Assembly: GCA_963696385.1 (NCBI GenBank)
Contig: CAVOKF010000001.1
Location: 348,024 to 412,023 of the forward strand
DNA from: an uncultured delta proteobacterium
GTDB lineage: Bacteria; Myxococcota_A; Polyangia; Polyangiales; Polyangiaceae
DNA: 64,000 bases
Direction of reading: 5' to 3'
Positions 16,290 through 62,124 of this stretch are shown one piece after another. The notes beneath the pieces are model-generated. The model was not told the origin of the DNA. It searched no databases and was given only the letters and a program-made list of their open reading frames with translations. Position 1 is the stretch's first letter. Each line of letters starts with the position of its first letter. The position numbers and the translations under genes were made by a program.

Positions 16290-16305
16290 GTCTGCTATGA
16301 TAGAC
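16290..16305. promoter_or_regulatory. GTCY-N8-RGAC box upstream of the beta-carbonic anhydrase
   Basis: GTCTGCTATGATAGAC. Confidence 0.65.
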
Positions 16306-16445
16306 AAGCGATGCTCGCTGTCGGTGCCCGTCTCGGACGCGCGCCGACGCGATCCGGTCGTGCGCTGCATTGCACTGCATTTGTCCCAATACCCTAAACG
16401 CGGGTCGGGGGCGTCTCCCTGGACCCAACGAACAGGAGGACGATC

Positions 16446-17027
16446 ATGAGCGATATCCGAGACCAGGTCCTGCACGCGAACGGTTCGTACGTCTCCATCT
16501 TCGGCGAAAAGGGCAAGCTGGCGCTGCCGCCCGCCCGGCGATTCGGCATCCTCACGTGCATGGACGGTCGAATCGATCCGGCAAAGCTCGCGGGCCTGAA
16601 GGAGGGCGACGCGCATGTCGTTCGAAACGCCGGCGGTCGCGCGAGCGACGACGCCATCCGATCCATCGTCATCTCCTACAAGCTATTGGGTACGCGCGAG
16701 TGGTTCGTCATTCACCACACCAATTGCGGTATGGAGCTCTTCACCGACGAGATCATTCGCGACCTTCTCGCAGCAAGCTTGAAGACCGCGGCCTACGACG
16801 GAAAGAAGTGGAAGGACAGCGGCGAGGGCGCGGGCTCGCGCCAAGGCGACTTCATCGACTGGCTCACGATCAAGAACCAGGCCGAGAGCGTCACGACCGA
16901 TGTCGAGCGGATCCGCAAGCATCCTCTCGTTCCACGCGAAATCCCCCTTTACGGCTTCGTGTATCAGGTCGAAAGCGGTCGCCTCGTCGAGGTGCCCGAA
17001 GCCACCGCGATCGGGCGTCCTTCCTGA
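16446..17027 (+). CDS. Beta-class carbonic anhydrase (clade D / COS-hydrolase-like)
   Basis: TCMDGR, RNAGGR, HHTNCGM; AGGAGG RBS. Confidence 0.92.
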
Positions 17028-17285
17028 CTCGCGGGCAACGCCGTGCTTCGGCCTGCCGGGTGCGGAGGGTTGCCGAACCCTGGGTTCGGTTGGGCTGCCG
17101 ACCTCCGCCCGACGCGGGCCGCGCTCCACCTCAGAATGTTTTCTGAACGTTGCCCTTGCAGCGGGAGTCTTCCGTCCGCAGCTTGCGGGTAGGCGCCGCA
17201 TGTGGACGGCGCGACTCGAGCCTCGGATGAATTCGCCCAGGAAGCGAAACGGCTTGGACCGCAACGATGAAACCATGAGGGGCTG

Positions 17286-17951
17286 TTGGTGTCGGAGCGC
17301 GTTCACGTTGGACCGGAGGCGATCGGCACCCCTCTGCGGGGCCCCGCGGCCATCACGTCATTCCTAAGTGCCAAAGCGAAGATGCGACCGTCTGCCACCG
17401 GACTCTCGAGCGCAAGCTCGCCGTCGTTGCTTGCAACGCCTCCGCTGCATGACCCTCCGAGGACCGGCGAAGAAGCCCCGAAGATTTTGGAAAATGACGT
17501 CGACCACGTGCTTGCCTCGTGGCGTCACATCGCCATAGCTTTTTGGCGCCGCGAGACGAGACCGGACGCGATCGAGCGACTGGGCCTGGCCCTGCGTGCC
17601 CTGCAAGACGCCACGGGTCACGCGCCGGGGCTCTTCATGGTGATCGGTGAAAGCGCTCCTCTGCCGTCCGCCGAGGCGCGCGCGCTGAGCGCAACGGTAC
17701 TCCGCAGGTTGCCGCTCGCGTTTTCCGTCGTGACCTTCGAGGGCGCCGGCTTCCGAGCCGCGGCGGTCCGCGCGGTCGTTGCGGGTATTTCGCTGCTTGC
17801 GAAGGTTCCGTATCCATACAAATCATTCGCCAGCATCGAAGATGCGTCGACGTGGGTCGCGATGCGCACACGGGCGGACGGCGAAGCCTCGGTGCCGGCG
17901 AAGGCTCTCATGGTCGCTGTACACGGCGCCCAGGGGGCCCGCGCAGGCTAA
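17286..17951 (+). CDS. Hypothetical protein (STAS/SEC14-like, myxobacterial type); start uncertain
   Basis: LPSAEARA...EGAGFRAAAVRAVVAG...F..IEDA..W. Confidence 0.6.
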   Translation: MVSERVHVGPEAIGTPLRGPAAITSFLSAKAKMRPSATGLSSASSPSLLATPPLHDPPRTGEEAPKILENDVDHVLASWRHIAIAFWRRETRPDAIERLGLALRALQDATGHAPGLFMVIGESAPLPSAEARALSATVLRRLPLAFSVVTFEGAGFRAAAVRAVVAGISLLAKVPYPYKSFASIEDASTWVAMRTRADGEASVPAKALMVAVHGAQGARAG

Positions 17952-18107
17952 CCGAAGCGGCCGAACCGTTGGGCCGGCGCCCTGCCGGGTCTCGCGCCGT
18001 GCCCAGTGCGAGCCCTCGCCTTGTATCTGACCTCGGCGCAGGGGTGAGTTCGACGCCTTTGCCGACGAGTCGATGCTTTGCGCGGACGACGTGCGCATCG
18101 AATGCCC

Positions 18108-18425
18108 GTCCCGATGGTCGATCCCCGTAGCATGCCCACACAAGCCGGTAGAACCTCGCCCCACACTTTGCGTTTCTTCTCGCTTCCCTCGCGCGACCCC
18201 GGCGTCGACCGGGCCCGGTACGCCGTCGACCTTGCGCTCCATTGCCTAGGCGGCATCGAGCCGGCAACGGAGATTCGTGACCTGGTCGCCCAGGCCGAAC
18301 TGCTGAGAGACGAAATCAGCAGTTGGACCGCACACCCACCGTCTTCTGAAACGCGGGAGGCCGTTATGTGCGGCGCTCTGTCGATTCAAGTCGCCGCGCT
18401 GAGCCTTCTCGGCAAAGGCCGCTGA
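18108..18425 (+). CDS. Small hypothetical protein; start uncertain
   Basis: Helical, protein-like 3' half (LRDEISSWTAHPPS..REAVM). Confidence 0.4.
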   Translation, partial: VPMVDPRSMPTQAGRTSPHTLRFFSLPSRDPGVDRARYAVDLALHCLGGIEPATEIRDLVAQAELLRDEISSWTAHPPSSETREAVMCGALSIQVAALSLLGKGR

Positions 18426-18571: not shown

Positions 18572-20195
18572 TTACTGCGTTACGGCGGTGACGGGCGAAC
18601 GGCCGATCTCGTGGCCGAATCGGTCTTTCGCGACGACGCGAACGAATTTCGGATCGCCCTCGAGCGGGATGGCGGTGTCAAGACCGTCCCACGTCGAGGA
18701 TGCCAGCAGGCGAGGGTCGCCGGAGGCGCCGTCGCCGCTGCCGATGACGTCCCAGCGCGCGACTTCGGTCGCGCCGTTCCAGATCGCGTGCACGGTGGTC
18801 GTGCCGCCGGCCGCCTGGGCCGTGGCCGTCGGCAACGTGTCCGGCTTTCCGACCCACTCGAATCGATACGCGCGGTAGGAGTCGAAGCCCGCCGCGAGAC
18901 TCGCGTCGAAGAGGAGATTGCCTTCGAAGTCGAACTCGGAGAACCGCGGGACGGCGCCCCAGCCGACAAACGTGTCGCCGTTGTCCAGAGCCTGACTGCC
19001 GCCCTGAGAGGCGGCTGACAGATGGTCGGAATGGACGAACGATCGCACGAGTGTCGCCGTCTTGGTCGCGTCGTCTCGCCGCACCCAGATGACGCGCGAG
19101 TAGGGCAGAACGGGCGTACCGTTCGATTCGTTGTCGAAGATTCGAATCGTGTCCCGATCGACAGCAGTCGGGTTGTGCTGCCAGGCGAAGGCCACGTTCG
19201 GTCCGAGCGTGAAGTCGCTCGCTTTGCCGCCGAGACGCCAGATGACATCGCCCGTGTGTCGATTGAGCTTGTAAACCGTCCACGTGTGCCGCGACGAAAT
19301 CAGCAAGTTGCCGTCCTCGTCGGGGCTTACGGCGTTGATATGAAAGTAGTCGTACGGGGTCGTGGCCAAGGCAGGGACCGGTTCGTAGCTGTCGACCAGC
19401 GGCACGTGGTCGAGGCTGTGCCACTCGAACAGGACCTGTCCGCTCGCAATGTCGATTTCCTGGACGATCCCGTCGATGACCAGTCCGCTGGTCGAACCCC
19501 CGACCGACGACAGGTCACGGGTCACGGCGTCGTATACGGTGATGAGCGCCGTCCCCTCCGGCGTCAGTCTGAACTCGTGCTGGTCGGCGTCGAGCCCATG
19601 GCCAGCCGTGACCGTCGCGATGACGTTGTAGCGGTTATTGAGGATGTAATCGGTGGTCAGGCCCTGAGCGAGACCGCCGAACCCTTTGCCCTGCGACCAG
19701 GTGAGAACCGGCTCGCCCCGGTAGCTTTGAACCCGAAAGTCCGCGGCGGCCTGCCCGTTCGTGATGGGCAAAAACCATACAGGGCGGCCCTGGTCGTCGA
19801 GGATCTCAGGCCCCTCTTGACCGGCCGGTGCGGCCGGACTTCAGCGGCGCCTTTAAAGTGATCCACTTCCGGGCGTTCTCGTGATCCACGTCATGGTCCC
19901 AGCGCAACGCCGGCGGCGGCGGGCGGGCCCGCGTCCGCGCCGCCGCTCGGTATCGCCAGCGAGGCGGTACTGATCGGCGCAATGAAGATCAGCCCATGAG
20001 CCGCTCGGGGGCTGGACTGAAGGACCGTGATCGGCGGGGGATTGATCGGGACTGGAGCCGCGGTCGGGACCGGAGCCGCGGTGGACGACGCAGCGCTCGA
20101 AGAATCCGCGCGGGCCAACACGCTGAGCAGGCCGAGCGCAACAAGCCCTGCACCGCCAACGTGGGCATTCGAAACGACCTATGGAAAGACGTCAT
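18572..20195 (-). pseudogene. Arylsulfotransferase (ASST) family protein with disrupted 5' region
   Basis: DQHEF, DYFHINAV, AWQHNP, SQGGSQ motifs; signal region frameshifted; ~55-bp insert with stops at 19841-19893. Confidence 0.85.
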
Positions 20196-20294: not shown

Positions 20295-21689
20295 TCATGT
20301 CGATCCCAAGGACGAAGGCGATGCGCCGGAGTGGTGGACAGGGGCGCTGCGCGCCTTCGGCGTTTGAGAAAACTGATTGGCCGGACGCTTGAGGCCCAGG
20401 TGATCGCGCAACGTTTTTCCCTCGTACTCGGTGCGGAAAATGCCCCGCTTCTGCAGATGCGGAACGACCCGATTGATGAAGTGCTCCAGCGAGTCCGGGA
20501 TGAACGACGGCTTCATGTTGAAGCCGTCGGCACCCTCGTGGACGAACCAGTCTTCGAGCTGGTCGGCGATGTCCACCGGCGTTCCCACGACGATGCGGTG
20601 TCCCTGCACGGCCGAGAAGCGCAAAATGAGCTCCCGGATGCTGAGGTTTTCGCGTTGGGCAAGCGCGATGGCCTGGCGCCAACGGCCCTTTCCGTTAACC
20701 GGCTCGGGCAGATCGGTCGGCATGGGACCGTCCAGCGGATACTTGGAAACATCGACACCGAAGAATTGCTTCGATCCCGATACGTCGACGGCGTCCCGGT
20801 ACGATTCGTACTTCTCTTGCGCTTCCTGCCGCGACGAACCGATGTGGAAGAACAAGCCGGGAGTGACCTTGAGGTCGTCGGGGTCGCGACCGTATTTGGC
20901 CAGACGTCCCTTCACGTCGCGGTAAAACGATTGCGCCTCTTCGAGCGTTTGTGCAGCCGCGTAAATCACCTCGGCGTACTGGGCCGCGAACTCGCGTCCG
21001 GCATCGGAATTGCCGGCCTGAAAGAAAACCGGGTACCCCTGGATCGGCCGTGCGATATCGAGGAGCGCGTCCACCGAAAAGTGCTTGCCGTGGTGATGAA
21101 GGGGGTGAGAGCTCTTGGGGTCGAAGAAGATGCCCGTTTCCTTGTTTGGACGATCGAACGCTCCGTCGTCCCAGCTGTCCCACAGCTTCTTCGTCACGTC
21201 GACGAACTCTCCCGCGCGCTCGTAGCGCCCGTCGTGGTCGAGGCCGTCCCGGACTCCGAAGGATTGCGCCGCTCCTTCCGAGAGCGACGAGACGATGTTC
21301 CAGCCCGATCGGCCCGCCGTGAGGTGATCGAGCGAAGCGAGGCGCCGTGCCACGTTGTACGGCTCATTGAAATTGGTGTTGATGGTCGCCACGAGGCCGA
21401 TGCGATTCGTGATTCCGGCAAGAGCGGCCACCAAGGAGGTCGGTTCGAAATGGCCGCCGTGCGGCCTGCCGCCCACGCCACGGATCTCGGCGCCGCCCTG
21501 AGCCACGAAATCCGCGAAGAACGCGAAATCAAATTTTCCGCGCTCGAGCAGCTTGACGATGCTCGCCCACTCCTCGAATTGGGGATTGCCACCGGCGTGG
21601 ACCTCCGGCCGGCGCCAGGCGTGCCCGTGGGTACCAAATTGCTGCACGAAGACCGACAGTGACAGCTGACGCTTCTTCTTCTGGCTCAT
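20295..21689 (-). CDS. LLM flavin-dependent monooxygenase, NtaA/SnaA/DszA family
   Basis: ERGKFDFAFFAD, FEP, PYNVARRLASLDHLTAGRSGWNIVSS, QAGNS, TLRDHLGL. Confidence 0.93.
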   Translation of the reverse strand: MSQKKKRQLSLSVFVQQFGTHGHAWRRPEVHAGGNPQFEEWASIVKLLERGKFDFAFFADFVAQGGAEIRGVGGRPHGGHFEPTSLVAALAGITNRIGLVATINTNFNEPYNVARRLASLDHLTAGRSGWNIVSSLSEGAAQSFGVRDGLDHDGRYERAGEFVDVTKKLWDSWDDGAFDRPNKETGIFFDPKSSHPLHHHGKHFSVDALLDIARPIQGYPVFFQAGNSDAGREFAAQYAEVIYAAAQTLEEAQSFYRDVKGRLAKYGRDPDDLKVTPGLFFHIGSSRQEAQEKYESYRDAVDVSGSKQFFGVDVSKYPLDGPMPTDLPEPVNGKGRWRQAIALAQRENLSIRELILRFSAVQGHRIVVGTPVDIADQLEDWFVHEGADGFNMKPSFIPDSLEHFINRVVPHLQKRGIFRTEYEGKTLRDHLGLKRPANQFSQTPKARSAPVHHSGASPSSLGST

Positions 21690-21776: not shown

Positions 21777-22859
21777 TCAGGCGGCGCGAACGTTCTCGAG
21801 CGTGCGTGCCGCTTCTTCCAACGGGCGCCGATCGATCCAGGCGTCGAGGTCGAAGTCTCGATCGAGGACTCCGTGGACGAGCAGGAAGTCCTTTTGCTGC
21901 CGGAAGAGATCGACGCGATCGGCCGACAAATCGGGCGCAAGCGACTGATGAAAGCCGGCCCGATAGGCTTTTGCGACGCCCTCGGCCGTGGCGCCCGTCT
22001 CGCTCTGGAGGATCTCTTGCACTCCTTTCAAGTTGGTCTTGGCCCACTCCGCGGCGCGAAGCGTCTGGCGCAGGAACCGAACGAGCAAGTCGTAGTGGTG
22101 CTCCAAGAAGTATTCGTGCACCGTGACCGGGCGTGGTGTGCCGTTGTTCACCCGAAAGCGCCGCTCGGGCAGCTTGTCGAGATCGATGCCGACGACGAAG
22201 CCGTGCTTCGCCGCCCCGTCGGCCGCCGGGGCGCCCTTGACGTAGATGGCGTCGACCTCGCCCCGGGCGAGCGGCTCGAAGCTCGGCCAGAAGCTACCGT
22301 AGTTGTCGCGAGCGTTTGCATCGGGGGTCCGGTCTTGCCCAGCGCCTACTTCGACCAAGTGCACGTCCTTTAGCGTGAGACCGACGGAGGCGAGCGCGCC
22401 GTCGTAGCCATGGAGGCTCATGTGCCGCGCGATGCTTCGCCCACGCCGATTCTCAGCAATATCGACCGGATTGAAAGCCGGCAGGGCGAGGCGCCGACCC
22501 TTCAATTGCTGCGGCGAACGGATGTCGGAATCGGGCCGTACGAGAATCGATTGACCCTCGTCGATCCAGGTGAGGCCGATGAGACGCGTCGGGGCGCCCT
22601 GCGCCTTGGCCGGAATCGCAAAGAGATTTCCGCCTTCGCGAATGAGCGTGGACAGCTGGTGATCGTAATGGTGATGGCGGAGCTCCTTGCCGGCGTCTTC
22701 CTGCAGGGTGCGAAGGGCAATGCCGTCATTTTTGAACTCGGCGGTCAGATAGCCGAGCTTGTAGGCGATGCCGGACGCGGTGGGCACACCGCCCCGGCCA
22801 CCCCCGGCGCAGCGTGTGAACCAGATCTCATCGATTTTGGATTTCGGCGTGATGGCCAT
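21777..22859 (-). CDS. DszB-like (desulfinase / SBP-fold) protein 1 with Gly-rich insertion
   Basis: WFTRC(AGGGRGG)VPTA, HYDH, IREGGN, TRLIGLTW; no signal peptide. Confidence 0.8.
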   Translation of the reverse strand: MAITPKSKIDEIWFTRCAGGGRGGVPTASGIAYKLGYLTAEFKNDGIALRTLQEDAGKELRHHHYDHQLSTLIREGGNLFAIPAKAQGAPTRLIGLTWIDEGQSILVRPDSDIRSPQQLKGRRLALPAFNPVDIAENRRGRSIARHMSLHGYDGALASVGLTLKDVHLVEVGAGQDRTPDANARDNYGSFWPSFEPLARGEVDAIYVKGAPAADGAAKHGFVVGIDLDKLPERRFRVNNGTPRPVTVHEYFLEHHYDLLVRFLRQTLRAAEWAKTNLKGVQEILQSETGATAEGVAKAYRAGFHQSLAPDLSADRVDLFRQQKDFLLVHGVLDRDFDLDAWIDRRPLEEAARTLENVRAA

Positions 22860-22906: not shown

Positions 22907-22942
22907 TGACTTTTATTTGGACCCATGTCCATCATAAAAGAC
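22907..22942. promoter_or_regulatory. GTCY-N8-RGAC box with a partner site
   Basis: GTCCATCATAAAAGAC at 22927; TGACTTTTATTTGGAC at 22907. Confidence 0.7.
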
Positions 22943-23074: not shown

Positions 23075-23980
23075 ATGGGAAACGACCGATCTCTCACTCA
23101 GGCCAGTGACTTCCATCCCGAAGTGTTGAGGCTCTTCGACCAGTACGTCCACAACGTCATCGACCGACATGCTTTTCTCGCCGGCGCGGCCCCATTCGCC
23201 GTGGGTGGGGTGACGGCGGCGAGCCTTCTCGAGGCGCTGCGTCCCCGGTTCGCCGAGGCTCAGCACGTGCCGAAGGAAGACCCGCGCCTCCACGGCGAGA
23301 CCGTCGAGTTCGCGTCGCCGCAAGGCTACGGCAAAGGCCGCGGCTATCTCGTGCGGCCGGCGGCCAAGGCTTTGGCCAAGCTGCCGACGGTGCTCGTCGT
23401 GCACGAGAACCGCGGGTTGAATCCTCACATCGAGGACGTCGCCCGGCGGCTTGCGCTCGAACATTTCGTTGCCTTCGCACCCGATGCCCTTTTCCCATTG
23501 GGGGGGTATCCCGGCGACGAAGACAGGGCGCGGGAAATGTTCTCGAAGCTCGACCCCTCCAAGACGCGGGAAGACTTCGTCGCTGCGGCGGGCTTCTCGC
23601 GGAGCCGGCCCGAGAGCAAAGGCAAGCTCGGCGTCGTGGGCTTCTGCTATGGCGGCGGCATCGCCAACTTTCTTGCGACGCGGCTGCCGGACCTCGACGC
23701 CGCAGTGCCGTTTTACGGCAGCGCCCCGCCCTCGGACAAGGTCGCCGCCATTCGGGCGCCGCTCCTCATCCATTTTGCCGAAAACGACGAGCGCATCAAC
23801 GGCGCATGGCCGGCCTACGAGACCGCGCTCAAAGCGGCCGGCGTGAAGTACGAAGCGTGCACCTATCCGGCGACGCAACACGGATTTCACAACGACACCA
23901 CGCCGCGCTACGACCCCGCGGCCGCCCAGCTCGCCTGGCAGCGTACCCTCGCCTTCTTGAACCGCACGCTGCGCGCCTAG
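23075..23980 (+). CDS. Dienelactone hydrolase family protein (YghX-like)
   Basis: VVHENRGLNPHIEDVARR, GFCYGG, QHGFHND. Confidence 0.92.
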   Translation: MGNDRSLTQASDFHPEVLRLFDQYVHNVIDRHAFLAGAAPFAVGGVTAASLLEALRPRFAEAQHVPKEDPRLHGETVEFASPQGYGKGRGYLVRPAAKALAKLPTVLVVHENRGLNPHIEDVARRLALEHFVAFAPDALFPLGGYPGDEDRAREMFSKLDPSKTREDFVAAAGFSRSRPESKGKLGVVGFCYGGGIANFLATRLPDLDAAVPFYGSAPPSDKVAAIRAPLLIHFAENDERINGAWPAYETALKAAGVKYEACTYPATQHGFHNDTTPRYDPAAAQLAWQRTLAFLNRTLRA

Positions 23981-24015: not shown

Positions 24016-25785
24016 TCACGCGGACAGCTCGCCGGTTCGGGCCCCTTCCGTCTGAATGGTGAAGAGCTTCGCATAGAGGCCGCCTGCCCGTCCTGCGAGC
24101 GCCGCGTGACGGCCCTGTTCGAGGACGCTGCCGTCCTTGATCACCAATATTTGGTCGGCATTCATCACGGTGCTCAGGCGGTGGGCAATGATGACCGAGC
24201 TTCGTCCCCGCAGTAACCGTTGGAGCCCGCGCTGCACCAGATGCTCGGACTCGGAATCCAGGGCACTCGTGGCCTCGTCCAAGATGATCATCTCCGGCTC
24301 CTTGAGGAGCGCCCGAGCGACGGCGATCCGCTGCTTCTCACCGCCGGACAGCTTGACGCCCCGCTCCCCCACCAGCGTGGCGTACTGATCCGGCAGATGC
24401 TGGATGAAGTCATCCGCGTGGGCTGCAACGGCCGCCTGACGTACCTCGTCCAACGAGGCGGCCGGCTTGGCGAACGCGATGTTTTCGGCGACGTTGTCGT
24501 TGAACAGTGCGACGTCCTGAAGGACGACCCCGAGCTTGCTGCGAACGGAGCGCTGACGGTAGCGGCGCATGTCGAGGCCGTTCACGAGCACACGGCCCTC
24601 GGTCGGATCGTAGAACCGCATGAGGAGCTTGACGATCGTCGTCTTTCCGCTGCCGCTCGGCCCCACGAGGGCAAGCGATTGACCCTTGCCTAGCGAGAAT
24701 GACACGTCGCGCAGCGCATAGACGCTCTTGCCCGGGTAGCGAAAGCTCACGCGCTCGAACGCGATGGTGTCCAGCCTCTCGAGTTCCAGAGCGTCCGGCG
24801 CATCGGTGAGCTCGGCCTCCACGTCCAAGAGCTCGACCAGTCGCTCAGCGCTGCTCTCGACCTCACCCATCTGATTGACCTGACGCGAAATGGGGGTGAT
24901 GGTGTTGATGAGGGTCTGAGTCAGGGTCAGCACGAGCAGGATGTCCCCTGCGGTGTACCGACCCGCCAATGCGCCGCGTGCCGTGACCGCCACTGCGGCG
25001 AAGACTCCCAAGGCGTTTGCGATGTTCAGTGCCAGCGCCGAACGCCACTCGGTGCGGTGTAGGGCGTCTCGCGTCACCTTCCACTGCGCCTGGGTCTTGT
25101 CGTATCGCTGCTTGACGGCGAGCTCGCCCCCAAAGCTGCGAACGGTCGCGATGTTGCCCACCATTTCGGCCAGCAGGCCGGTCATTCGTCCCGCGAGCGC
25201 CTGCCAGCCACGCCGGTGCGGCTTGGTCCAACCGACCGTCCGGTGCGAAATTACCAAGTTGAACAGCACGACGCACGTCAAAATGGCACCGATGAGCGGG
25301 ACCCTGGTGAGGAGCAGTCCGATGATGAAGAGCATTTGGAGAATGCTCGCGAGCGTGCCCTCGGTCAGGGACATGAGCCACATGGTGATCTGGGTGATCG
25401 CTCCGAAGCGATCCATGATCTCACCGACCCGCATCTTCTCGAAGTAGTCGATCGACAAGCGGGTCATGTTGTCGAACACACGCTGCCGAAAGGTGCTGAC
25501 GGCATCGAGCCACAGATCGTCGGCCTGACGGTCCTGCATCGCGCCCAACAGCACGACCGCCAACCGAAACGCGAAGAAGGCCGCAATCAACACAGTGATC
25601 TGGTGTGCGGCTTGCGGCCGGGAAAGCCGGTGCGACAGCAAACCCGACAGCACGTCGACGATCATCTTGTAGAGTTGTGGGGTTGCCGTGCCGATGGCTC
25701 CGAGAGCCGTTCCGACGACGAAAACGCCGATGACCCGTCCGCGATACTCGGGGATGAACCGAACCGCTCGCCAGATGTTCTTCAT
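24016..25785 (-). CDS. Type IV (exporter-fold) ABC half-transporter
   Basis: TM domain plus GPSGSGKT, LSGGE, ILDEAT; start taken at MKNIW after GAGG. Confidence 0.92.
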   Translation of the reverse strand: MKNIWRAVRFIPEYRGRVIGVFVVGTALGAIGTATPQLYKMIVDVLSGLLSHRLSRPQAAHQITVLIAAFFAFRLAVVLLGAMQDRQADDLWLDAVSTFRQRVFDNMTRLSIDYFEKMRVGEIMDRFGAITQITMWLMSLTEGTLASILQMLFIIGLLLTRVPLIGAILTCVVLFNLVISHRTVGWTKPHRRGWQALAGRMTGLLAEMVGNIATVRSFGGELAVKQRYDKTQAQWKVTRDALHRTEWRSALALNIANALGVFAAVAVTARGALAGRYTAGDILLVLTLTQTLINTITPISRQVNQMGEVESSAERLVELLDVEAELTDAPDALELERLDTIAFERVSFRYPGKSVYALRDVSFSLGKGQSLALVGPSGSGKTTIVKLLMRFYDPTEGRVLVNGLDMRRYRQRSVRSKLGVVLQDVALFNDNVAENIAFAKPAASLDEVRQAAVAAHADDFIQHLPDQYATLVGERGVKLSGGEKQRIAVARALLKEPEMIILDEATSALDSESEHLVQRGLQRLLRGRSSVIIAHRLSTVMNADQILVIKDGSVLEQGRHAALAGRAGGLYAKLFTIQTEGARTGELSA

Positions 25786-28885: not shown

Positions 28886-28940
28886 ACGGCTCGACGGCTT
28901 CGGCGGAGAGACGACCGCGATCGCGCCCGACAGGCAGCCC

Positions 28941-35666: not shown

Positions 35667-35685
35667 GGTGTGATTGCTCCCACGC

Positions 35686-50821: not shown

Positions 50822-50844
50822 GTTCGACGTGCCTCGCCGCAGGT

Positions 50845-50880
50845 GTCTACCATAATGGAACACTGTCTACAATTCGGGGA
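50845..50880. promoter_or_regulatory. Tandem degenerate boxes between ribBA and the regulator
   Basis: GTCTACCATAATGGAA at 50845; GTCTACAATTCGGGGA at 50865. Confidence 0.6.
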
Positions 50881-53727: not shown

Positions 53728-54875
53728 TTCGCCCTGGGCTTGCAGACGACATCGAAGATCCCGTTTTCGGAGAAGAATCGATCCTCGGCGTCGGCCCAAT
53801 GCTTTGCCACGAGTGTAATGGGGAAGAGGTCGACGGGAGGGAATCGGTCGCCGTGTTTCTTGAACACCTCGACACTCACGGGCCGGTACCCGTTCCGAGC
53901 GATGATCTCTTGCCCTTCGTCGGTGTAGAGAAACGATAGATAGGCCTCGGCGAGCGCCCGCGTGCCTTTGCGCTCGACGTTGGCGTCCACCCACGCGACG
54001 TACGGCTCTGCGCGAATGCTCACGGGGGGAACCACGACGTCGAGCTCGCCCTTGGACGCTTCGGCCTCGCGCCAAGCCTCGTTTTCCCACGTCACTTGAA
54101 CGTCGCCCACCCCTTCTTGTGCAAACGTTCGCGTCGCGTCGCGCGCACCGTCGTCGAGAGCGGCGACGTGATCGCACAGATCGGAGACGTACGCGCGTGC
54201 CGCATCGTCGTCGCCGCCGCGGCGAAGCACCGCCCCCCACGCCGCGAGTAAGCTCAGCCGCCCGTTTCCGGACGTCTTCGGGTTCGGCGTCACCACCGAA
54301 ACGCCCCGGCGAACAAGGTCCGGCCAATCATGAATGGCCGCCGGATTGCCCTTGTGAACCACGAACACAATCGTCGACGTATACGGCACAGAATTGTTGG
54401 GAAGCCGCCCGGCCCAGCCGGGCGCGATCCATCCCCGCTTGCGAAGCGCGTCGATGTCCGAGTACATCGCCAGCGTCACGACGTCCGCAGCAAGACCGTC
54501 GGCGACCGCGCGTGCTTGACGCGACGAGCCCCCGTGGGACTGTCGAATCTCGACCATCTTGCCCGTGCGGTGTCGGTAAGCGAGAGCGAACCGCTCGTTC
54601 AGATCGCGATACAGCTCGCGCGTCGGGTCGTAGGACACGTTGAGAAATGCGCCACCGACATCCTGAGCCCCGACGTTTTTTCCAAACACCACGGCAATCG
54701 ACACCGCCACGGCCAAGAGCGCCGCGACGTTGAGCCAGCGGTTCGGCCACGGACTGCCCGGCCGGAGCGACCGGATCTCGGAGTGAGGGTTCCCAGGTTG
54801 CGCACCACCCTGCGGGGATCTCACGGGTCGATTGGGGAACCATCGGGCCGGAAAACGCCGTTTCACGCGAAGCAT
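53724..54875 (-). CDS. sbp: Sulfate/thiosulfate-binding protein (start uncertain)
   Basis: LNVSYDPTRELY, QSHGGSSRQAR, PNPKTSG, TWENEA. Confidence 0.93.
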   Translation of the reverse strand: MLRVKRRFPARWFPNRPVRSPQGGAQPGNPHSEIRSLRPGSPWPNRWLNVAALLAVAVSIAVVFGKNVGAQDVGGAFLNVSYDPTRELYRDLNERFALAYRHRTGKMVEIRQSHGGSSRQARAVADGLAADVVTLAMYSDIDALRKRGWIAPGWAGRLPNNSVPYTSTIVFVVHKGNPAAIHDWPDLVRRGVSVVTPNPKTSGNGRLSLLAAWGAVLRRGGDDDAARAYVSDLCDHVAALDDGARDATRTFAQEGVGDVQVTWENEAWREAEASKGELDVVVPPVSIRAEPYVAWVDANVERKGTRALAEAYLSFLYTDEGQEIIARNGYRPVSVEVFKKHGDRFPPVDLFPITLVAKHWADAEDRFFSENGIFDVVCKPRAK

Positions 54876-54909
54876 CTATCATTACGGACGCGTGTCTTTC
54901 AATAGGAGA
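54874..54909. promoter_or_regulatory. Tandem degenerate boxes between sbp and cysK
   Basis: ATCTATCATTACGGAC at 54874; GTCTTTCAATAGGAGA at 54894. Confidence 0.55.
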
Positions 54910-55206
54910 GACCCGCGCCGGACGTTGGACAGCGCGCGCCCCAACCCGGGGGCCACACGAGCGACGCGCGAATGATTTGCGCGGCCGCGCCGGAGATGCG
55001 TGGGATTCGCGGGGGGAAGACCGGCCGATCCCCACGCGATCGCCCTCGAGGTCGCCCAAAACCCGAACGACGCGGGCGGGGCCACGGCGGCGCGGGGGAC
55101 GACGTTGGAGCGAAGGCGTGTCTCGTGCTACGAACGCCCGACGCGGGCTCGGCCGGTTGTCCCGATCGAGGACCACCCCGGCCGCACGGTCTCGCGGAAG
55201 GATGTC

Positions 55207-56184
55207 ATGGCCCACTGGTTCGAAGACAACGCTCAGTCCATCGGCCGCACGCCGCTCGTGCGCATCAATCACCTGCAAGACCGCCCGCGCGCCCGGATCC
55301 TCGCCAAGATCGAGGGACGCAACCCCGCGTATTCCGTCAAGTGCCGCCTCGGAGCGGCCATGGTGTGGGACGCCGAGAAGCGGGGTGTCCTCGGACCTGG
55401 CAAGGAGATCATCGAGCCGACCAGCGGCAACACCGGAATCGCGCTCGCGTTCGTCGCCGCCGCTCGCGGATACCCCCTCACGCTGACCATGCCCGAGACC
55501 ATGAGCATCGAGCGGCGCAAGCTCTTGGCTGCGTACGGCGCCAAACTCGTCCTGACCGAGGGGCCCAAAGGGATGAGCGGCGCCGTCGCGAAGTCCGAAG
55601 AGATCGCCGCTTCGAATCCGGCGCGCTACGTGCTTTTGCAGCAATTCAAGAATCCGGCGAACCCGGCGATTCATGAAACGACCACGGGACCGGAAATTTG
55701 GGAAGACACGGGAGGCGACGTCGACATCCTGGTCTCCGGGGTGGGCACCGGCGGCACGATCACGGGCGTTTCGCGCTACTTCGAGAAGACACGCGGAAAG
55801 CCCCTTCTCTCAGTGGCCGTCGAGCCCACGAACAGTCCCGTCATCGCGCAGAAGCGCGCGGGCCAGAACCTGGTACCCGGACCGCACAAGATTCAGGGAA
55901 TCGGCGCTGGCTTCATTCCCGACGTGCTGGACCTTTCGCTTGTCGATCAGGTGGAGGCCGTGACGAACGAGGAGGCGATCGACTACGCGCGCCGGCTCAC
56001 GCGCCGGGAGGGGATCCTGTCCGGGATATCGAGCGGGGCGGCGGTCGCCGTCGCGGTGCGGCTCGCCGCGCGGGCCGAACACGAAGGAAAAACCATCGTC
56101 GTCGTGCTGCCGGATTCGGGCGAGCGTTACCTCAGCACGGTCCTCTTCGAGGGGATCTACGACGCGCAGGGAATCGCGACTTGA
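55207..56184 (+). CDS. cysK: Cysteine synthase A
   Basis: [38 protein letters not shown]. Confidence 0.96.
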
Positions 56185-57131
56185 GCGAGAGAACGACAAC
56201 GACGGAGTCCCGACCCGGCGCCCGCCCCGCGACCTGGACGCTCGGCGCGGTGGTGGAGGCCATCTGCCGGGCGAACGAGGGCAGCCGGACGGGCACGTTC
56301 GGACGGCGGCCGCTCCCCTCGCGATCGGCGGTCGCCGAGCTCGTCTCGGGGCTCCGAGCGGCGCTGTTTCCCTGGCATTTCGGCCCATCGGACCTGTCCG
56401 GCGAAGGGCTGGTCTATTACGTCGGTCGGACTCTCGACGCGTCGTTGGCCGTGCTCGAGGATCAGGTTCGGGTGGGCCTGCTGTTCGAGGGCCAGCACGG
56501 CGAGGCCGTCAGTGATGCGGATGCCCCTCGCGCGACGGCGATCGTGCACGCGTTCGCGTCCCGGCTTCCCGCATTGCGGGAGATGCTCGAGAGCGATGCG
56601 CGCGCCGCTTACGAAGGGGACCCGGCCGCCACAAGCGCGGACGAGACGAATTTCTCCTATGCGGGCATGACGGCCATCACCTACCACAGGATCGCCCACG
56701 AACTTCACCGGCTCGGGGTCCCGCTGATTCCGCGCATGATCTCCGAGCTCGCCCACTCCGTCACCGGCATCGACATCCATCCGGGAGCCGCGATCGGTCC
56801 GCGGTTTTTCATCGACCACGGTACCGGCGTGGTGATCGGGGAAACCTGCATCATCGGCGAGCATGTCCGCCTCTACCAGGGCGTCACGCTCGGAGCCAAA
56901 AGCTTTCCGACCGACGACCATGGGAACCCGGTCAAGGGCATCCCGCGCCACCCCATCGTCGAAGACGACGTCATCGTCTACGCGGGAGCGACCGTCCTGG
57001 GTCGGATCACGGTCGGACGTGGCTCGAGCGTCGGGGGCAACGTCTGGCTCACGCATAGCATCGCGCCCGGCACGCACGTCAGCCAGGCCCAGCTGCGTCA
57101 TGAGGTCTTCAACGACGGGGCGGGAATCTAG
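56181..57131 (+). CDS. cysE: Serine O-acetyltransferase (CysE/EpsC type)
   Basis: [41 protein letters not shown] overlap with cysK. Confidence 0.93.
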
Positions 57132-58836: not shown

Positions 58837-59009
58837 GGAAACGGCCGTCGGCGCTTCGAAGCCGACGTGGCGAGTAGCCGGTCGAAAGCGTATCGATCAA
58901 CGAAGAGCCGCGGAAACCGCGGCGGTCACATATAACTCGTTAGGGGCTTCCGCCGTCGCTGTAATGGCGAACCGATTTGAAGGCTTCCGTTGTCACCGAG
59001 CCGCGAACC

Positions 59010-59650
59010 CGATTTGGCAAGTCATCGTGCGCACGAATTACAAATTGTGGCACGATACCAATAGCGAATTTTATCACGACTTCATTCATTACTTCAATCG
59101 CGTGACCGGGATGCAGCAACGGGGGTACTTCGAACGCAAGTACGTGCCCTTTCCCAATGGAAACGCGACGGTCGGGTCGATGCAGGTGAAGTACGACCAG
59201 TACGAAGGCGGTGAGGAGCGCATCGGTTGGCCGGGCCTTGCGGCCGGCGGGTGGGTCCTCGTCGATATTTTCCCGGGCATGACGTTCAACTTGCGCACGT
59301 CCGTGCTTCGAATCGATACCGCCATCCCGCTCGGAACCAACGAAACGATGATCGAGCTCCGAGGTCTCGCGTTGGCCCGGGACTCTCGGGAAGAACGCGC
59401 TCTTCGCATCCGCGATCACAATGCCATATGGGGACCCTTCGGTCGCAACCTGCATGAAGATCTGCTCGCCGTGACGGGCCAAGGGACGGCCCTGCGTGAC
59501 GGTGGGACCGACGTTCGCTGGCTGATCCACGCACGAGAAGAGGGCATGACCATCCACGACGAAGGCGGAATGCGCCACTTTTACGCCGAGTGGAGCCGGC
59601 GCATGGGTCGTTCGGCTTCGGACCCGTTTGCCGAGCGAGGCGGCCCGTGA
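59010..59650 (+). pseudogene. msmA: Methanesulfonate monooxygenase-like alpha subunit, catalytic half only (Rieske domain missing)
   Basis: NYKLWHDTNSEFYHDFIH, WGPFGRNLHEDL, IHDEGGMRHFYAEW; no CxH..CxxH upstream. Confidence 0.8.
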
Positions 59651-60102
59651 GAACGGTCGTCGAAAAGCTCGTGTACCGATCGTGCCTTTTGTTGGACGAC
59701 CTCGATTTCGAAGGCTTTCTGAGCCTTTGCGATGCCGATTTTCGCTACATCCTCCAGGCGTACGCCCCAGAGATTCGGCGCGACATGGTGTGGCTCGATC
59801 ACGATCGAGCGGGCATGCAGACACTATTTCGCAACCTACCGCGGCACCACAGCGATCCCTCGCCTTTGACCCGCCACGCGACCGTGTACACGGTGACGTT
59901 CGACGAACCGAACACACGGGCCACCGTCGTGTCCGCATTGCAGGTCTTTCGGACGGCCCTGGACGGCGGCGCAACGTCGCTCTTTGCCGTGGGAAAGCTG
60001 CACGACACCGTGAATCTCGCCGGCGGGTCGGCGCTCCTGGCGAGGCGAGCGATCCGGCTCGATACGCGCCAACTCGGGATCGGCAGCCACATTCCATTGT
60101 GA
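59647..60102 (+). CDS. msmB: Methanesulfonate monooxygenase-like beta subunit
   Basis: LVYRSCLLLD, AYAPEIRRDMVWL, LPRHHSD..LTRH, LDTRQLG; GTGA overlap. Confidence 0.8.
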   Translation: MRTVVEKLVYRSCLLLDDLDFEGFLSLCDADFRYILQAYAPEIRRDMVWLDHDRAGMQTLFRNLPRHHSDPSPLTRHATVYTVTFDEPNTRATVVSALQVFRTALDGGATSLFAVGKLHDTVNLAGGSALLARRAIRLDTRQLGIGSHIPL

Positions 60103-60148
60103 GGCTGCGCGTCGCCGCCGACAGGGCGGAACCCGTCGACCGGCCGTC

Positions 60149-61219
60149 TCAGACTCGGAGGTCCTGACTTTCCGGCACAGGCCCTCTCGACGCCGCGCGC
60201 GCCCGCAGTCGCTCCTGCGCCGCCCGGAGGGGTCGATCGTCGATCCATGCATCGTAATCAAAGTCGCGATCGAGAAAACCATAGGTGAGCTGAAAGTCCT
60301 TCTGCTGCCGGAAAAGCGCGACGCGCTCGCTCGATAGGTCCGGCGCAAGCGCAAGATGAAAGCCGCCGCGATAGGCCTCTTCGACCCCCTGCGAACTGGC
60401 GCGCGTCTCACCTTGCAGAACCTTGTGAACTCCTTCGACGTTGGTCTTGGCCCATTCGGCAGCACGAAGAGTCTGGTAGAGGAAGCGCACAAGCAGGTCG
60501 AAGTGGTCGGCCAGAAGGCTCTCGTGCACGGTGATGGGGCGCGGCGTCCCGTTGTTCACGCGAAAGCGGCGTTCCGGAAGCCGATCGAGGTCGATCCCGA
60601 CGACGGCCCCATGGCGGCGTGCGGCATCCGCCGCCGAAGCGCCCTTTACGTAGACCGCGTCGACCTCGCCCTTGATGAGCGGATCGAGCCCCTCCCAGAT
60701 CCCGCCGAGGCCGTCGCGCCGATTGTCGGAAGCACCGCGCCCGACCTCGACGAGTCGAACGTCGTCGAGCGTCAGGCCGACCGACGCGAGCGCGCCCTTG
60801 TAGCCCGCGAGGCTCATGCCTCGCGCAATGCTGCGACCACGGCGATTTTCGGCGAGGTCGGAGGCACGAAAGGCAGGTAGCGCGAGTCGCTTGCCTTTCA
60901 AGTGCTCCGGCGAGGTTATGGCTTCGCCGGGCCGCACGAGGATCGACTGCCACTCGTCAATCCATGTCAGGCCGACGAGCCGCGACGGGGCTCCTTGAGC
61001 CTTCGCGGGGATAGCAAGAAGATTGCCGCCCTCGCGAATCAGCGTTGGCAGCTCGTGGTCGTAATGATGCCGGGCGAGCTCGCCGCCTGCATCTTGCAAG
61101 GTTCGAACCCGAATCCCGTCTGGTTTGAACTCGTCATCGAGCCAGCCAAGCTTGTAGGCCAGGCCTGTGGCCGTGGGAACGGGGCAGCGGGTGAACCATA
61201 GGGTGTCCAACGCGGTCAT
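60149..61219 (-). CDS. DszB-like protein 3
   Basis: LWFTRCPVPTA, HYDH, IREGGN; paralog of 21777-22859; no signal peptide. Confidence 0.82.
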   Translation of the reverse strand: MTALDTLWFTRCPVPTATGLAYKLGWLDDEFKPDGIRVRTLQDAGGELARHHYDHELPTLIREGGNLLAIPAKAQGAPSRLVGLTWIDEWQSILVRPGEAITSPEHLKGKRLALPAFRASDLAENRRGRSIARGMSLAGYKGALASVGLTLDDVRLVEVGRGASDNRRDGLGGIWEGLDPLIKGEVDAVYVKGASAADAARRHGAVVGIDLDRLPERRFRVNNGTPRPITVHESLLADHFDLLVRFLYQTLRAAEWAKTNVEGVHKVLQGETRASSQGVEEAYRGGFHLALAPDLSSERVALFRQQKDFQLTYGFLDRDFDYDAWIDDRPLRAAQERLRARAASRGPVPESQDLRV

Positions 61220-61314
61220 GGAGTTTTCTCCGATCGAGAAACCTTGGAGGTCGTTTCGTGGTCACGGCCCGATCTTCGGATCCGGACCCAGGCTCAAAGC
61301 GTCGACGCTCTCGG

Positions 61315-62037
61315 TCAATGGCCGGCATGCGGCAAGAAGCCCAAGGCGCGCGCCTGCTCGGTCAACCCGCTCATCTTGAACTGCTGCGCCAGGACCCCGG
61401 GACCGTAGTCGCGCGACCCACCAAGGCTCTCGGCGAGGAGCTGAAGGCGCGCGCCTTCTTCGAGAATCAGAATGAACTCGGCGGTCTTGCGCAGACCGCC
61501 CTTGCCCCAAACCGTCGCGCCTCCGTTCGCCTCCAGAATGGCCGGAGTGTGCGGATCGATCTGAAGCCGATCGAGAATGAAGTCCTGCTCGGCCTGGCGT
61601 CGATCCAAGTAGACCGGTATCTCGCGGCTGAGAAGATACCGCTGCACAGGTACGTAGCGAATGGGCAAGGTCCGCTGGGTTTGCGCCCACGCACCCAAAC
61701 ACGGCGAATGGACGTGCGAAACGGTCGTGATGTCGGGGTGCTGCTCGAGGATTTTCGAGTAGCGGCCCTGGCCGCCCCCACCCGCCTCGCCGAGATAGGC
61801 GGTGCCGTCGAAGCCAAATACGCGGGGCACGAGCGCCTTCCCGCGCTCGAAGGGGCCCGGGTCATGAATCGCGACAAACTTGCTCTCCCCCGGGATGCGC
61901 TCGACGAACCCCACGGTCCCATTGGCGGTGATCGTCCCCGTCTCGCGAAAGACTCGAAACGCGAGCTCGGCCTCCTCAGTGGCCCTCTTGACGAACGCGA
62001 CGGCTTTCGGACCGAGACTGTTCGCTGCTCGACTCAT
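61315..62037 (-). CDS. Class II aldolase/adducin-like protein
   Basis: HPDITTVSHVHSP, AILEANGGATVWG, LEEGA. Confidence 0.8.
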   Translation of the reverse strand: MSRAANSLGPKAVAFVKRATEEAELAFRVFRETGTITANGTVGFVERIPGESKFVAIHDPGPFERGKALVPRVFGFDGTAYLGEAGGGGQGRYSKILEQHPDITTVSHVHSPCLGAWAQTQRTLPIRYVPVQRYLLSREIPVYLDRRQAEQDFILDRLQIDPHTPAILEANGGATVWGKGGLRKTAEFILILEEGARLQLLAESLGGSRDYGPGVLAQQFKMSGLTEQARALGFLPHAGH

Positions 62038-62088
62038 GTTCTCACCTTTCGCTTCGGTCGCGCGGCGCGCGCCCTTGCCCGTCGCCAC

Positions 62089-62124
62089 GTCTATCATACA
62101 GGACACGCATGCGCAAGGTCGGAC
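62089..62124. promoter_or_regulatory. GTCY-N8-RGAC box with partner half-site
   Basis: GTCTATCATACAGGAC at 62089; GGAC half-site ending 62124. Confidence 0.7.

Follow-up and report, generated by a model that had tools for sequence, protein, structure and literature searches.

A sulfur-scavenging island in a Polyangiaceae myxobacterium, the largest cluster of a dispersed regulon with a probable SutR-type regulator

Introduction

In Escherichia coli, the sulfur-starvation response is run by CysB and Cbl. The ssu/tau regulon of these activator systems, known also from Pseudomonas, brings together ABC uptake of sulfonates, an FMNH2-dependent luciferase-like monooxygenase (LLM), a flavin reductase, a sulfate-binding protein and cysteine synthesis under a single nutritional signal, and TonB-dependent receptors (TBDRs) are known from the sulfate-ester regulons of Pseudomonas. 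Here, we analyze a block of about 46 kb (the island) that gene calls and Pfam and NCBIfam matches resolve into some 36 genes for sulfur uptake and release. The island lies in the last 64 kb (the window) of contig C1 (GenBank CAVOKF010000001.1) of an uncultured delta proteobacterium from soil, and we consider it probable that it is the largest cluster of a Polyangiaceae sulfur-scavenging regulon under a SutR-type regulator and its operator. The resemblance to the ssu/tau regulon covers all of the functions just listed. The differences are that the Ssu components of the island stay below the equivalog cutoffs, that the island adds DszB-like, aldolase-fold and beta-carbonic-anhydrase-like proteins, exporter-fold ABC pairs, TonB-ExbBD and ribBA, and that no LysR-type regulator was matched by Pfam among the 72 open reading frames (ORFs) of the window, which leaves room for a distant LysR regulator.

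The closest described relatives of the candidate regulator are XRE-cupin proteins. SutR (YdcN) of E. coli stands in an EcoCyc table as a regulator of sulfur metabolism (PMC5210515), and a ChIP-exo study reports a palindromic motif for it, with its strongest in vivo peak (signal-to-noise ratio, S/N, 1345) at its own promoter and the other peaks below S/N 21 among those listed (PMC8464067). The Pseudomonas repressors PsdR, PauR and ErfA belong to the same family; they bind palindromes as dimers, inhibit transcription and are described as local and highly specialized in the passages concerned (PMC7901475). The myxobacterial system differs from both in scale: one motif marks dozens of promoters, at least 31 sites, and whole pathways of uptake and desulfurization, whereas the E. 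coli promoter of sutR is the only strong in vivo site among the peaks listed. In addition, the half-site is GTCT here and GTsC in E. coli, and the regulator gene has four paralogues here.

Two further systems bear on the gene content, namely the 4S pathway (dszABC(D)) of Rhodococcus and the family 2A encapsulin SrpI. In Synechococcus, sulfur starvation induces SrpI (PMC8049743), and a rhodanese is its usual companion (PMC8049743; Andreas and Giessen preprint); the published passages seen of these sources name no regulator for such operons. Our literature search returned no paper on a myxobacterial sulfur regulon or an XRE-cupin sulfur regulon, and no published description of DszB-like proteins in sulfur-starvation clusters, the literature found being that of the 4S pathway and Gordonia. 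The available parts of a Rhodococcus RNA-seq paper (PMC13689224) contain no passage on aldolase or DszB paralogues.

The shared operator and its regulon

The genome (G000) spans 6.94 Mb in 8 contigs at 66% G+C. Its closest named record is a Polyangiaceae metagenome-assembled genome (MAG) with proteins 99-100% identical, in agreement with the earlier assignment of this DNA to a myxobacterium. Because spurious ORFs are abundant at high G+C, genes were called by a codon-usage score. Pfam was scanned with the 72 window ORFs and with 94 ORFs from the other places in the genome that carry strong sites (defined below), and NCBIfam with 42 proteins, 36 from the window and 6 from other loci.

Reading of the intergenic spacers of the window uncovered a 16-bp palindrome, GTCY-N8-RGAC. 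There are 17 exact matches in the window, whereas 100 shuffles gave 5.94 on average (sd 2.46) and never more than 14; 16 of the 17 fall within 16290-62104, and the density of the bare pattern genome-wide is 3.7 per 64 kb. Alignment of the sites in both orientations extends the motif to (A/G)TGTCT..TATA..AGACA(T/C), with an A/T-rich centre. A first guess drawn from shared 8-mers, GCGACTCGAGTCGC, was dropped (23 matches at up to 3 mismatches, 18.2 expected), and exact palindromes with 6-7-nt arms that recur at least 4 times were not found in the window. The earlier note on this DNA had proposed a shared palindrome and an island from 16290 to 62124; the palindrome is borne out by the counts, and these boundaries correspond to its first and last site.

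How much of the island does the palindrome front? For the genome-wide search, a symmetric 20-bp position weight matrix (PWM) was trained on 16 window sites, and a site was called strong at 17 bits or more. The palindrome fronts about 14 transcription units in the window, and 25 of the 36 island genes (27 if the arylsulfotransferase, ASST, and ORF 17487-17951 are counted) are in same-strand runs headed by a strong site. Weaker sites go with ribBA (14.4 bits) and, shared between them, with sbp-sulP and cysK-cysE (11.2 bits), and no site was found for the first glutathione S-transferase (GST) gene, the XRE-cupin regulator gene or the Rieske pair. The description of the genes as nearly all behind one palindrome therefore holds for 25-27 of the 36, and is somewhat generous as wording.

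The matrix finds 31 strong sites in the genome. The 14 in the window are circular, as they belong to the training set, while the 17 outside are independent. Twelve of these directly flank sulfur genes, two are in a cluster on C8 beside genes of no family, and three (C6:428010, C5:1207206 and C1:260978) have neighbours that are not evidently related to sulfur. On C5, the sites accompany a twin XRE-cupin-cysK-cysE unit opposite a second ASST gene, as well as a rhodanese-SrpI-cysteine desulfurase operon next to a third XRE-cupin gene. Other sites accompany sbp-cysTWA opposite cysK, YeeE/YedE-like transporters with an O/P-type porin (two instances), an NMT1_2 ABC importer, and a full Rieske alpha gene opposite an AprA-like flavoprotein with a ferredoxin (FAD/Fer4). 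An FMN reductase gene on C7 lies opposite a reading frame that combines a sigma-54 activator with an SsuA domain, next to which comes a DszC/SfnB-like gene (363 bits against an NCBIfam cutoff of 850), and C8 holds more aldolase-fold, LLM, DszB-like and TBDR genes. The island is thus the largest cluster of a sulfur-scavenging regulon that is dispersed over the genome, and is not self-contained. The earlier view of it as an integrated system does not hold in this respect, nor does it fit with an island that runs into a three-copy repeat and has been recently duplicated and rearranged (see below).

Two of these places deserve comment in their own right. The encapsulin operon (positions 3025-7016 of L005, G000:C5:529000-542000) has its own XRE-cupin gene, and a 25.7-bit site covers the apparent -10 box of its leaderless rhodanese gene; it lies outside the window and resembles the published SrpI operons in gene content. 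On C7 (L008, G000:C7:514000-527000, positions 6760-8769), a single ORF of 669 residues has an N-terminal sigma-54 activator AAA+ domain and a C-terminal SsuA-type domain that exceeds the TIGR01728 cutoff. This is either a real fusion or two genes without an intervening stop, and it has an orthologue in a second genome of the genus (G008).

Since genes of canonical sulfur assimilation in other parts of the genome stand behind this operator too, the island is tied to sulfur supply rather than to carbon catabolism, and its reading as a sulfur system is upheld. The block has also been considered as a set for breaking down aromatic or xenobiotic sulfur compounds, whether to detoxify them or to use their carbon, or for redox stress, with no nutritional starvation response. 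The GSTs, the dienelactone hydrolase (DLH), the aldo-keto reductase (AKR), the Rieske oxygenase and (in G008) AhpC in the regulon would suit such a role, and a passage on Pseudomonas describes co-induction of sulfur-starvation and antioxidant genes (PMC12581299). It is difficult to see, however, why a detoxification operator should head sbp-cysTWA, cysK, cysE, YeeE-like genes, the SrpI encapsulin operon and methionine-synthesis genes, and the Pfam scan of the window showed no genes for ring cleavage or central catabolism. We regard this explanation as quite improbable.

Conservation of the operator

Among the strong sites in the retrieved regions of three genomes, 65 of 66 are outside called genes, and many are within 100 bp of a start codon. 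A stricter pattern, GTCYNNNATNNNRGAC, was counted in 41 genomes (G000 and 40 relatives) and compared to a reversed-pattern control, which is imperfect, and the related genomes are non-independent samples. It matches 36 times in G000 (23 of these being strong PWM sites) compared to 2 for the control, and 42 times compared to 3 in its near-twin G003; the excess is moderate in most genomes of the same genus, and most of the order's other families show counts close to background. One genome, G010, enters only the pattern and paralogue tallies and bears on no conclusion.

Two relatives were followed further. In G008, a three-contig genome of the same genus, the pattern has 21 matches (3 in the control). 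PWM sites occur there at the orthologues of the porin, two rhodaneses and the NMT1_2 importer with Rieske alpha/beta and flavoprotein, at an activator-SsuA/DszC-like/RibBA cluster, in which RibBA is beside the DszC-like and LLM genes, and at an LLM gene opposite AhpC. One site lies between a unit of a Cys/Met pyridoxal-phosphate (PLP) enzyme with homoserine acyltransferase (MetA) and a beta-carbonic-anhydrase-like gene.

The second relative, G041, is a 9.5-Mb named Myxococcales MAG whose proteins are 35-85% identical. The stricter pattern has 28 matches there (11 in the control), 10 of them within 41 kb. PWM scanning of 75 kb at this place and of five other 20-kb regions shows that about 18 strong sites dot an island of roughly 60 kb with the same gene classes: FMN reductase, sigma-54 activator, two HTH_3 genes, aldolase-fold and ExbBD genes and four DszB-like ones, along with LLM, exporter-fold ABC pair, TBDR, SsuABC, GST and DLH genes. 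One of the HTH_3 genes encodes an XRE-cupin protein 57% identical to that of the window, with a site directly upstream.

The operator is therefore lineage-specific, and is kept at orthologous promoters in three myxobacterial species (G000, G008 and G041). A survey of DszB-like loci (described below) agrees, with strong sites in 12 of the 16 loci labelled Myxococcota and in one labelled as a Cellulomonas MAG, and in none of the 62 others (Methylococcaceae, Methylophilaceae, Oxalobacteraceae, Sphingomonadales, Pseudomonas and Actinomycetota). The exceptional locus, L073 (uncultured Cellulomonas sp. MAG; 70% G+C), encodes DszB-like and beta-carbonic-anhydrase-like proteins 75% and 76% identical, respectively. 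It also has three sites that resemble the operator (15-22 bits), and may have come from a myxobacterium and been binned wrongly.

The candidate regulator

The only transcription-factor family that Pfam finds in the island is HTH_3-cupin, represented by the XRE-cupin gene at 51274..51840 (plus strand). Its product has the HTH_3 and cupin domains of SutR and full-length similarity to it by BLASTP (36% identity, E 5e-32), and a paralogue on C3 is slightly closer (38%, E 4e-37); both have a recognition helix near-identical to that of SutR. The genome has four such paralogues. Compared to the window protein, the C5 twin is 97-99% identical, the C3 (c-type) protein 57% and the encapsulin-linked copy 38%, and the recognition helix is almost identical in the window, C5 and C3 proteins. 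Three of the four are in site-rich loci, and the C5 twin and the encapsulin-linked gene have a site within about 350 bp. The C3 gene adjoins siroheme-synthase and NMT1_2 genes, and its type is present at about 55% identity in all 24 of the genus genomes sampled.

The E. coli system provides a further parallel. The ydcO-sutR spacer contains two imperfect 16-bp palindromes (L162:11091-11106 and 11124-11139) with the GT..TTATA..AC layout of the myxobacterial operator. Taken together, the sequence comparisons suggest a SutR-type XRE-cupin regulator, where the earlier note had drawn a contrast with LysR and sigma-54 control and named no regulator. We think it likely that the palindrome is the operator of SutR-family XRE-cupin regulators, which would bind it as dimers, and that the island's own XRE-cupin protein is one of those that bind it.

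Several observations weigh against this pairing. The window gene itself lacks a strong upstream site, and G008 has no XRE-cupin gene adjoining a site in the regions examined. When 20-kb stretches around XRE-cupin orthologues were scanned (13 loci of 10 other genomes, plus the c-type locus of G000), 11 of the 13 loci, as well as the c-type locus on C3, had no PWM site reaching 13 bits in the 10 kb to either side, the only matches being one in L045 (17.8 bits) and weak ones in L046; adjacency of regulator and site as a general rule was rejected on this basis. XRE-cupin homologues (E 1e-38 to 1e-56) are also encoded in G034, G038 and G040, which represent three other families, and the stricter pattern matches only 5, 4 and 3 times there (1, 2 and 0 in the control). 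Finally, the SutR ChIP-exo peak centres on the first ydcO-sutR palindrome only under an assumed offset of 1977 bp between genome versions.

Perhaps, then, the regulon and its sulfur role are real and another factor binds the palindrome: the sigma-54 activator of G000 (C7), G008 and G041, an OmpR-type winged-helix protein encoded next to a G008 site, or an unlinked regulator. The absence of XRE-cupin genes next to the G008 sites and the site-poor surroundings of most orthologues would follow naturally, and the sigma-54 activator gene has an upstream site in G000 and G008 and belongs to the G041 island. Against this idea, a search for -24/-12 promoters (TGGCAC-N5-TTGCW, up to 2 mismatches) gave 19 matches with 19.7 expected, none of them in a site-bearing spacer; the sites of an activator would not cover a -10 box, as some do (next section); the operator layout matches the sites in the E. 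coli sutR promoter; and Pfam finds no LysR-type gene in the island. A different binding factor is in our judgment unlikely, and an XRE-cupin protein is the better candidate.

Mode of regulation

Does the XRE-cupin protein repress or activate? Three rhodanese promoters from two species (L005:6315 in G000; L153:4626 and L160:7326 in G008) have a TTGCnn element, a spacing of 16-17 nt and a TATAGT or TATACT -10 box that coincides with the palindrome centre, and the start codon follows 2-3 nt past the site. With this geometry the transcripts would be leaderless and the operator would cover the -10 box, an arrangement that means repression. The characterized XRE-cupin proteins are likewise inhibitors, according to the passages cited above (PMC7901475). 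We therefore lean towards repression that would be relieved when sulfur is short, the inducing condition that we infer from the genes concerned, as the likelier mode.

Activation by the same regulator from the same operator under sulfur shortage, in the manner of CysB/Cbl-type systems, has a lesser though substantial probability. It would put this regulon in line with the classical sulfur-starvation regulators, which are activators. RefSeq labels E. coli SutR a dual regulator, and several promoters run counter to simple repression: between the end of the TonB operon site and a TTGACT -35 box downstream are 8 bp, which is where activators typically bind, and two G041 promoters (L144:833 and L141:15520) resemble it in geometry. 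The bias of the sites is also weak, since a -10-like TAnnnT points toward the gene at 18 of 39 single-direction sites and away from it at 11. What sets repression ahead is the arrangement of the three conserved rhodanese promoters, in which the operator covers both the -10 box and the start of transcription.

RNA data do little to help either mode. Of the words sampled, 0-9% occur in four metatranscriptome runs (two studies), and contigs from these peat RNA libraries match, at 0-8 differences, stretches within 37003-37722, 41071-43565 and 46716-49253; given possible DNA carry-over, they show the presence of the sequence only, and not transcription, strand, starts or regulation, and a lack of coverage elsewhere carries no information.

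Enzymes and transporters of the island

A scheme that accommodates the gene content is as follows. Dimers of the XRE-cupin regulator, one encoded in the island and three by paralogues elsewhere, would bind the operator while the cupin domain senses sulfur status. By analogy with known systems, scarce organosulfur compounds would cross the outer membrane through the TBDR, energized by the island's TonB-ExbBD, and enter the cytoplasm via both importers of the Ssu type, with a possible contribution from the exporter-fold ABC pairs. FMNH2-dependent LLMs of the DszA and SsuD types, supplied with flavin through RibBA and the FMN reductase encoded elsewhere, would then oxygenate the substrates, either freeing sulfite directly or leaving a sulfinate from which cytoplasmic DszB-like desulfinases could free it. 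Sulfite and sulfide would be directed to cysteine via CysK/CysE, with Sbp-SulP importing sulfate. Pfam and NCBIfam support 12 of the 13 gene classes that the earlier note had listed (msmAB being the exception), and the block has three further members, the beta-carbonic-anhydrase-like, XRE-cupin and AKR (62151-63074) genes.

The island begins with a 25.9-bit site (16290..16305) 140 bp upstream of the beta-carbonic-anhydrase-like gene (16446..17027, plus strand; Pfam Pro_CA). The protein falls in the clade of carbonyl sulfide (COS) and CS2 hydrolases (PDB 5ZTP, E 6e-38; 3VQJ, a COS hydrolase, 5e-29; 3TEN, a CS2 hydrolase, 3e-27), and may yield sulfide from COS. Its orthologue is behind a site in G008 and has a site nearby in G041. 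Next is the ASST gene (18572..19771, minus strand; Pfam Arylsulfotran_2, 9e-54), whose 5' part continues in another frame to about 20049 by tblastn with the C5 paralogue.

One pair of enzymes is encoded on the minus strand by the neighbouring genes for an FMN-dependent LLM of the NtaA/DmoA (DszA) family (20295..21689; TIGR03860, 505.6 bits against a cutoff of 279.7) and DszB-like homologue 1 (21777..22859). Two other DszB-like proteins are encoded at 36654..37727 (minus strand; split by one extra base near 37507) and 60149-61219. The sole PDB sequence matches of all three are the DszB structures 2DE2 and 2DE3 (E 3e-11 to 6e-10). The catalytic Cys27 of DszB aligns within SNCPVP to the TRCPVP of the 60149-61219 protein, is invariant in three full-length paralogues and is present in the N-terminal frame of the 36654-37727 protein. 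In the alignment to 2DE2, H60 aligns with a His and R70-F-G-G with R-E-G-G, and H52, R62, G64 and G65 are invariant in paralogue alignment A3; roles have been described for DszB C27, H60 and RXGG (R70, G72/G73) (PMC6100217). The conserved Cys motif begins at residues 8-25, while the two SsuA-like proteins have N-terminal extensions of about 60-70 residues, so that by inspection the DszB-like proteins appear to be cytoplasmic and to lack a signal peptide.

The proposed order of S-oxygenation followed by desulfination fits with these genes and with the DszC-like and FMN-reductase genes behind the operator on another contig, as far as homology can indicate. How closely does it resemble the 4S pathway? 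A DszA-family LLM above its cutoff adjoins a DszB-like protein with the key residues, and DszC-like and FMN reductase genes are in the same regulon. In contrast to dsz, the DszB-like proteins are distant from DszB, the DszC-like protein is below its cutoff and unlinked, and dsz lacks the aldolase-fold and ABC partner genes. Uptake by TBDR and ABC systems suggests water-soluble natural substrates rather than dibenzothiophene; the substrates of each enzyme and transporter we infer from such context and homology.

Between DszB-like homologue 1 and the YghX-like DLH gene (23075..23980, plus strand; Pfam DLH, 4e-45; NF041440, 383 bits, below the cutoff of 460) is a divergent promoter region with a 26.9-bit site (22927..22942) and a weak second site at 23014. 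Exporter-fold (type IV) ABC pair 1 (24016..25785 and 25808..27679, minus strand) is separated by an 18.3-bit site (27780..27795) and a weak one at 27709 from Ssu-type importer 1 (binding protein, permease and ATPase; 27860..30667, plus strand), whose best NCBIfam matches are SsuA_fam, SsuC and SsuB. An operon on the minus strand (30696..36525) contains TonB-ExbB-ExbD (36525-34543) and ABC pair 2 (32596-34542 and 30696-32621), assigned by Pfam and PDB matches, and is preceded by the 22.3-bit site (36591..36606) near the -35 box already mentioned.

Two sites, at 37769 (19.7 bits) and 37871 (24.1 bits; span 37769..37886), are upstream of DszB-like homologue 2. The operon at 37971..41364 (minus strand; Pfam and NCBIfam), with a 22.6-bit site upstream (41437..41452), encodes two LLMs (41364-~40270, frameshifted near 40399, and 40219-39077) and an SsuA-like protein (39080-37971). 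By their scores against TIGR03565 and NF001939 (244-246 bits for 39077-40219, with cutoffs of 510-518, and 116 bits for ~40270-41364), both LLMs are SsuD-like and not SsuD. Ssu-type importer 2 (Pfam and NCBIfam) consists of an ATPase (41474..42343, minus strand) and two permeases (42633..44161, plus strand), with sites at 42345 (17.7 bits) and 42439 (22.8 bits; span 42345..42454) in the divergent region. The TBDR gene (44368..46923, plus strand; Plug domain by Pfam, TonB-siderophore subfamily below the NCBIfam cutoff) follows sites at 44283 (18.2 bits) and 44370 (26.4 bits; span 44283..44385); the true start must be downstream of the second site.

GST 1 (47650..48263, plus strand; Pfam) lacks a start codon as assembled. 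SspA-like GST 2 (48328..49116, minus strand; Pfam and NCBIfam) has two sites upstream, at 49149 (17.5 bits) and 49520 (21.9 bits; span 49149..49535), and RibBA for riboflavin synthesis (49748..50863, minus strand; Pfam and NCBIfam) has its weak site at 50845. Beyond the regulator gene are a SulP/STAS permease gene (51940-53727) and sbp (53724-54824), both on the minus strand (51940..54824; Pfam and NCBIfam), and the cysK and cysE-like genes (55000..57131, plus strand; CysK TIGR01139, 447 bits against a cutoff of 351), divergent from the weak site at 54874..54889. The pairing of a periplasmic sulfate-binding gene with a SulP/STAS permease on the same strand, in place of cysTWA, is unusual.

The Rieske oxygenase alpha and beta genes (58964..60102, plus strand) were taken earlier for msmAB. 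The window alpha (58964-59650) is a catalytic domain only, broken at a repeat boundary near 59017, and has no Rieske domain by Pfam; a full-length alpha on C2 (L001:5076-6299) has the spacing CXH-X17-CXXH, whereas MsmA is defined by CXH-X26-CXXH in the passage describing it (PMC4433239). The pair is thus a generic Rieske oxygenase. The minus strand of 60149..62097 encodes DszB-like homologue 3 and an aldolase-fold protein (61315-62040/62097), and the last island site (62089..62104; 22.5 bits) follows. A PDB sequence search with the aldolase-fold protein gave no match at E up to 0.1. Its structure model (pLDDT 90.3) matches 1JDI (L-ribulose-5-phosphate epimerase; TM 0.72-0.77), FucA, pyruvic oxime dioxygenase and NovR in Foldseek, and the model points to the class II aldolase/adducin fold and to no particular reaction. 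Of the presumed three-His metal site, HxH is invariant, and the position expected for the third His by analogy with FucA reads E-x-N-G-G in 20 of 20 homologues.

Two points weigh against the functional scheme. The SsuD, SsuA, SsuC and SsuB matches are all below the NCBIfam cutoffs, and exporter-fold ABC proteins are normally exporters. The four half-transporters in question are fused ABC_membrane and ABC_tran proteins (Pfam) with PDB matches that include ABCB1, TmrAB and TM287/288, and an import role for them would be a departure from the rule.

Distribution of the gene combination

A search of the genome collection with an alignment of three DszB-like proteins yielded 419 relatives, from which a set of 79 loci was retained. 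Island proteins were compared to these loci by tblastn (at least 40% identity over at least half of the query); the loci vary in length, and so the counts are lower bounds. The SsuD-like LLM was found in 37 of the 79 loci, the aldolase-fold protein in 36, the second type of DszB-like protein in 27, the two members of ABC pair 2 in 24 and 25, the DszA-type LLM in 24 and ExbB in 7. The TBDR was found in none (14 at a looser cut), and the XRE-cupin protein in none. Groups with ABC pair 2 include Methylococcaceae, Methylophilaceae and Sphingomonadales (but none of the 23 Actinomycetota loci); it is found as an orthologous pair, 52-62% identical, beside DszB-like genes of other phyla. The synteny that the earlier note had proposed to look for is therefore found: DszB-like, LLM, class II aldolase-fold and exporter-fold ABC pair genes, with Ssu ABC and TBDR/ExbBD genes in part, recur among the 79 loci in eight taxonomic groups. 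This core of enzymes and transporters is, judging by homology, widely shared across phyla and has probably been transferred.

Assembly errors and recent rearrangement

Four island genes are out of frame as assembled, at positions 37507, 40399, 47653 and 19819-19945, the last being the 5' part of the ASST gene. The first three are 1-nt indels with which the sister genome G003 or RNA contigs disagree: the extra A near 37507 is absent from G003 and RNA contig X2; another extra A near 40399, in the second SsuD-like LLM, is in the same AGAATCG context, where G003 reads AGATCG; and dropping base 47653 (in GGATCGATC; absent from an RNA contig) restores an ATG behind GGAGGA in GST 1. These look like assembly errors near GATC, a systematic long-read error possibly at a methylated motif, and not pseudogenes.

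At its right end the island runs into a module some 5 kb long (Rieske alpha/beta, DszB-like, aldolase-fold and AKR genes; 59017..64000) present in three copies of 99.3-99.6% identity. Positions 59017-63965 are 99.4% identical to C2:5709-758, and 59941-64000 are 99.6% identical to the end of C8 (C8:882463-886522), with 22 mismatches in 4 kb between C8 and C2. The contig breaks inside the repeat, and so the island probably continues. On C5 there is a second copy of two island parts, ASST and regulator-cysK-cysE. A past rearrangement is recorded upstream of GST 1, where 51 bp (47504-47554) remain of a Rieske alpha 3' end, at 94% identity. The flank at 1-16000 contains many mobile and toxin-antitoxin genes (rve_3, IS110 and DDE transposases, HicB, Fic, PIN) and a Ser/Thr kinase fused to a periplasmic-binding domain.

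With segmental duplication so recent, and with debris of insertion sequences (IS) and miniature inverted-repeat transposable elements (MITEs), repeated on many contigs, at 57132-58980, could the palindrome be a mobile or structural repeat, similar to a MITE or a repetitive extragenic palindrome (REP), that was simply copied along? The sites share only a core of 16-20 bp, and their flanks differ; they recur at orthologous promoters in genomes with proteins only 35-85% identical; and the intergenic, start-proximal positions noted above are those of an operator. We consider a repeat highly implausible as the explanation, and the palindrome remains best read as an operator.

Implications

The short, well-defined operator makes a whole regulon legible from sequence, and it hints at what the SutR family does, a matter little understood in E. 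coli itself. A broader proposal, which we put forward tentatively, is that SutR-family XRE-cupins may act as master regulators of the response to sulfur starvation in Polyangiaceae-type myxobacteria, in the role that CysB/Cbl have in enterobacteria, and that their regulon may include an undescribed and widely transferred desulfurization route (TBDR uptake, exporter-fold ABC importers, DszA-type LLM, DszB-like desulfinase and aldolase-fold metalloenzyme) along with an enzyme of the beta-carbonic anhydrase clade that makes sulfide from COS. At least four widespread, uncharacterized families (the DszB-like proteins, their aldolase-fold partner, the exporter-fold ABC pair and the beta-carbonic anhydrase-clade protein) are put in a context of sulfur acquisition, so that their substrates can be sought among fewer compounds of sulfur-poor soils and peat.

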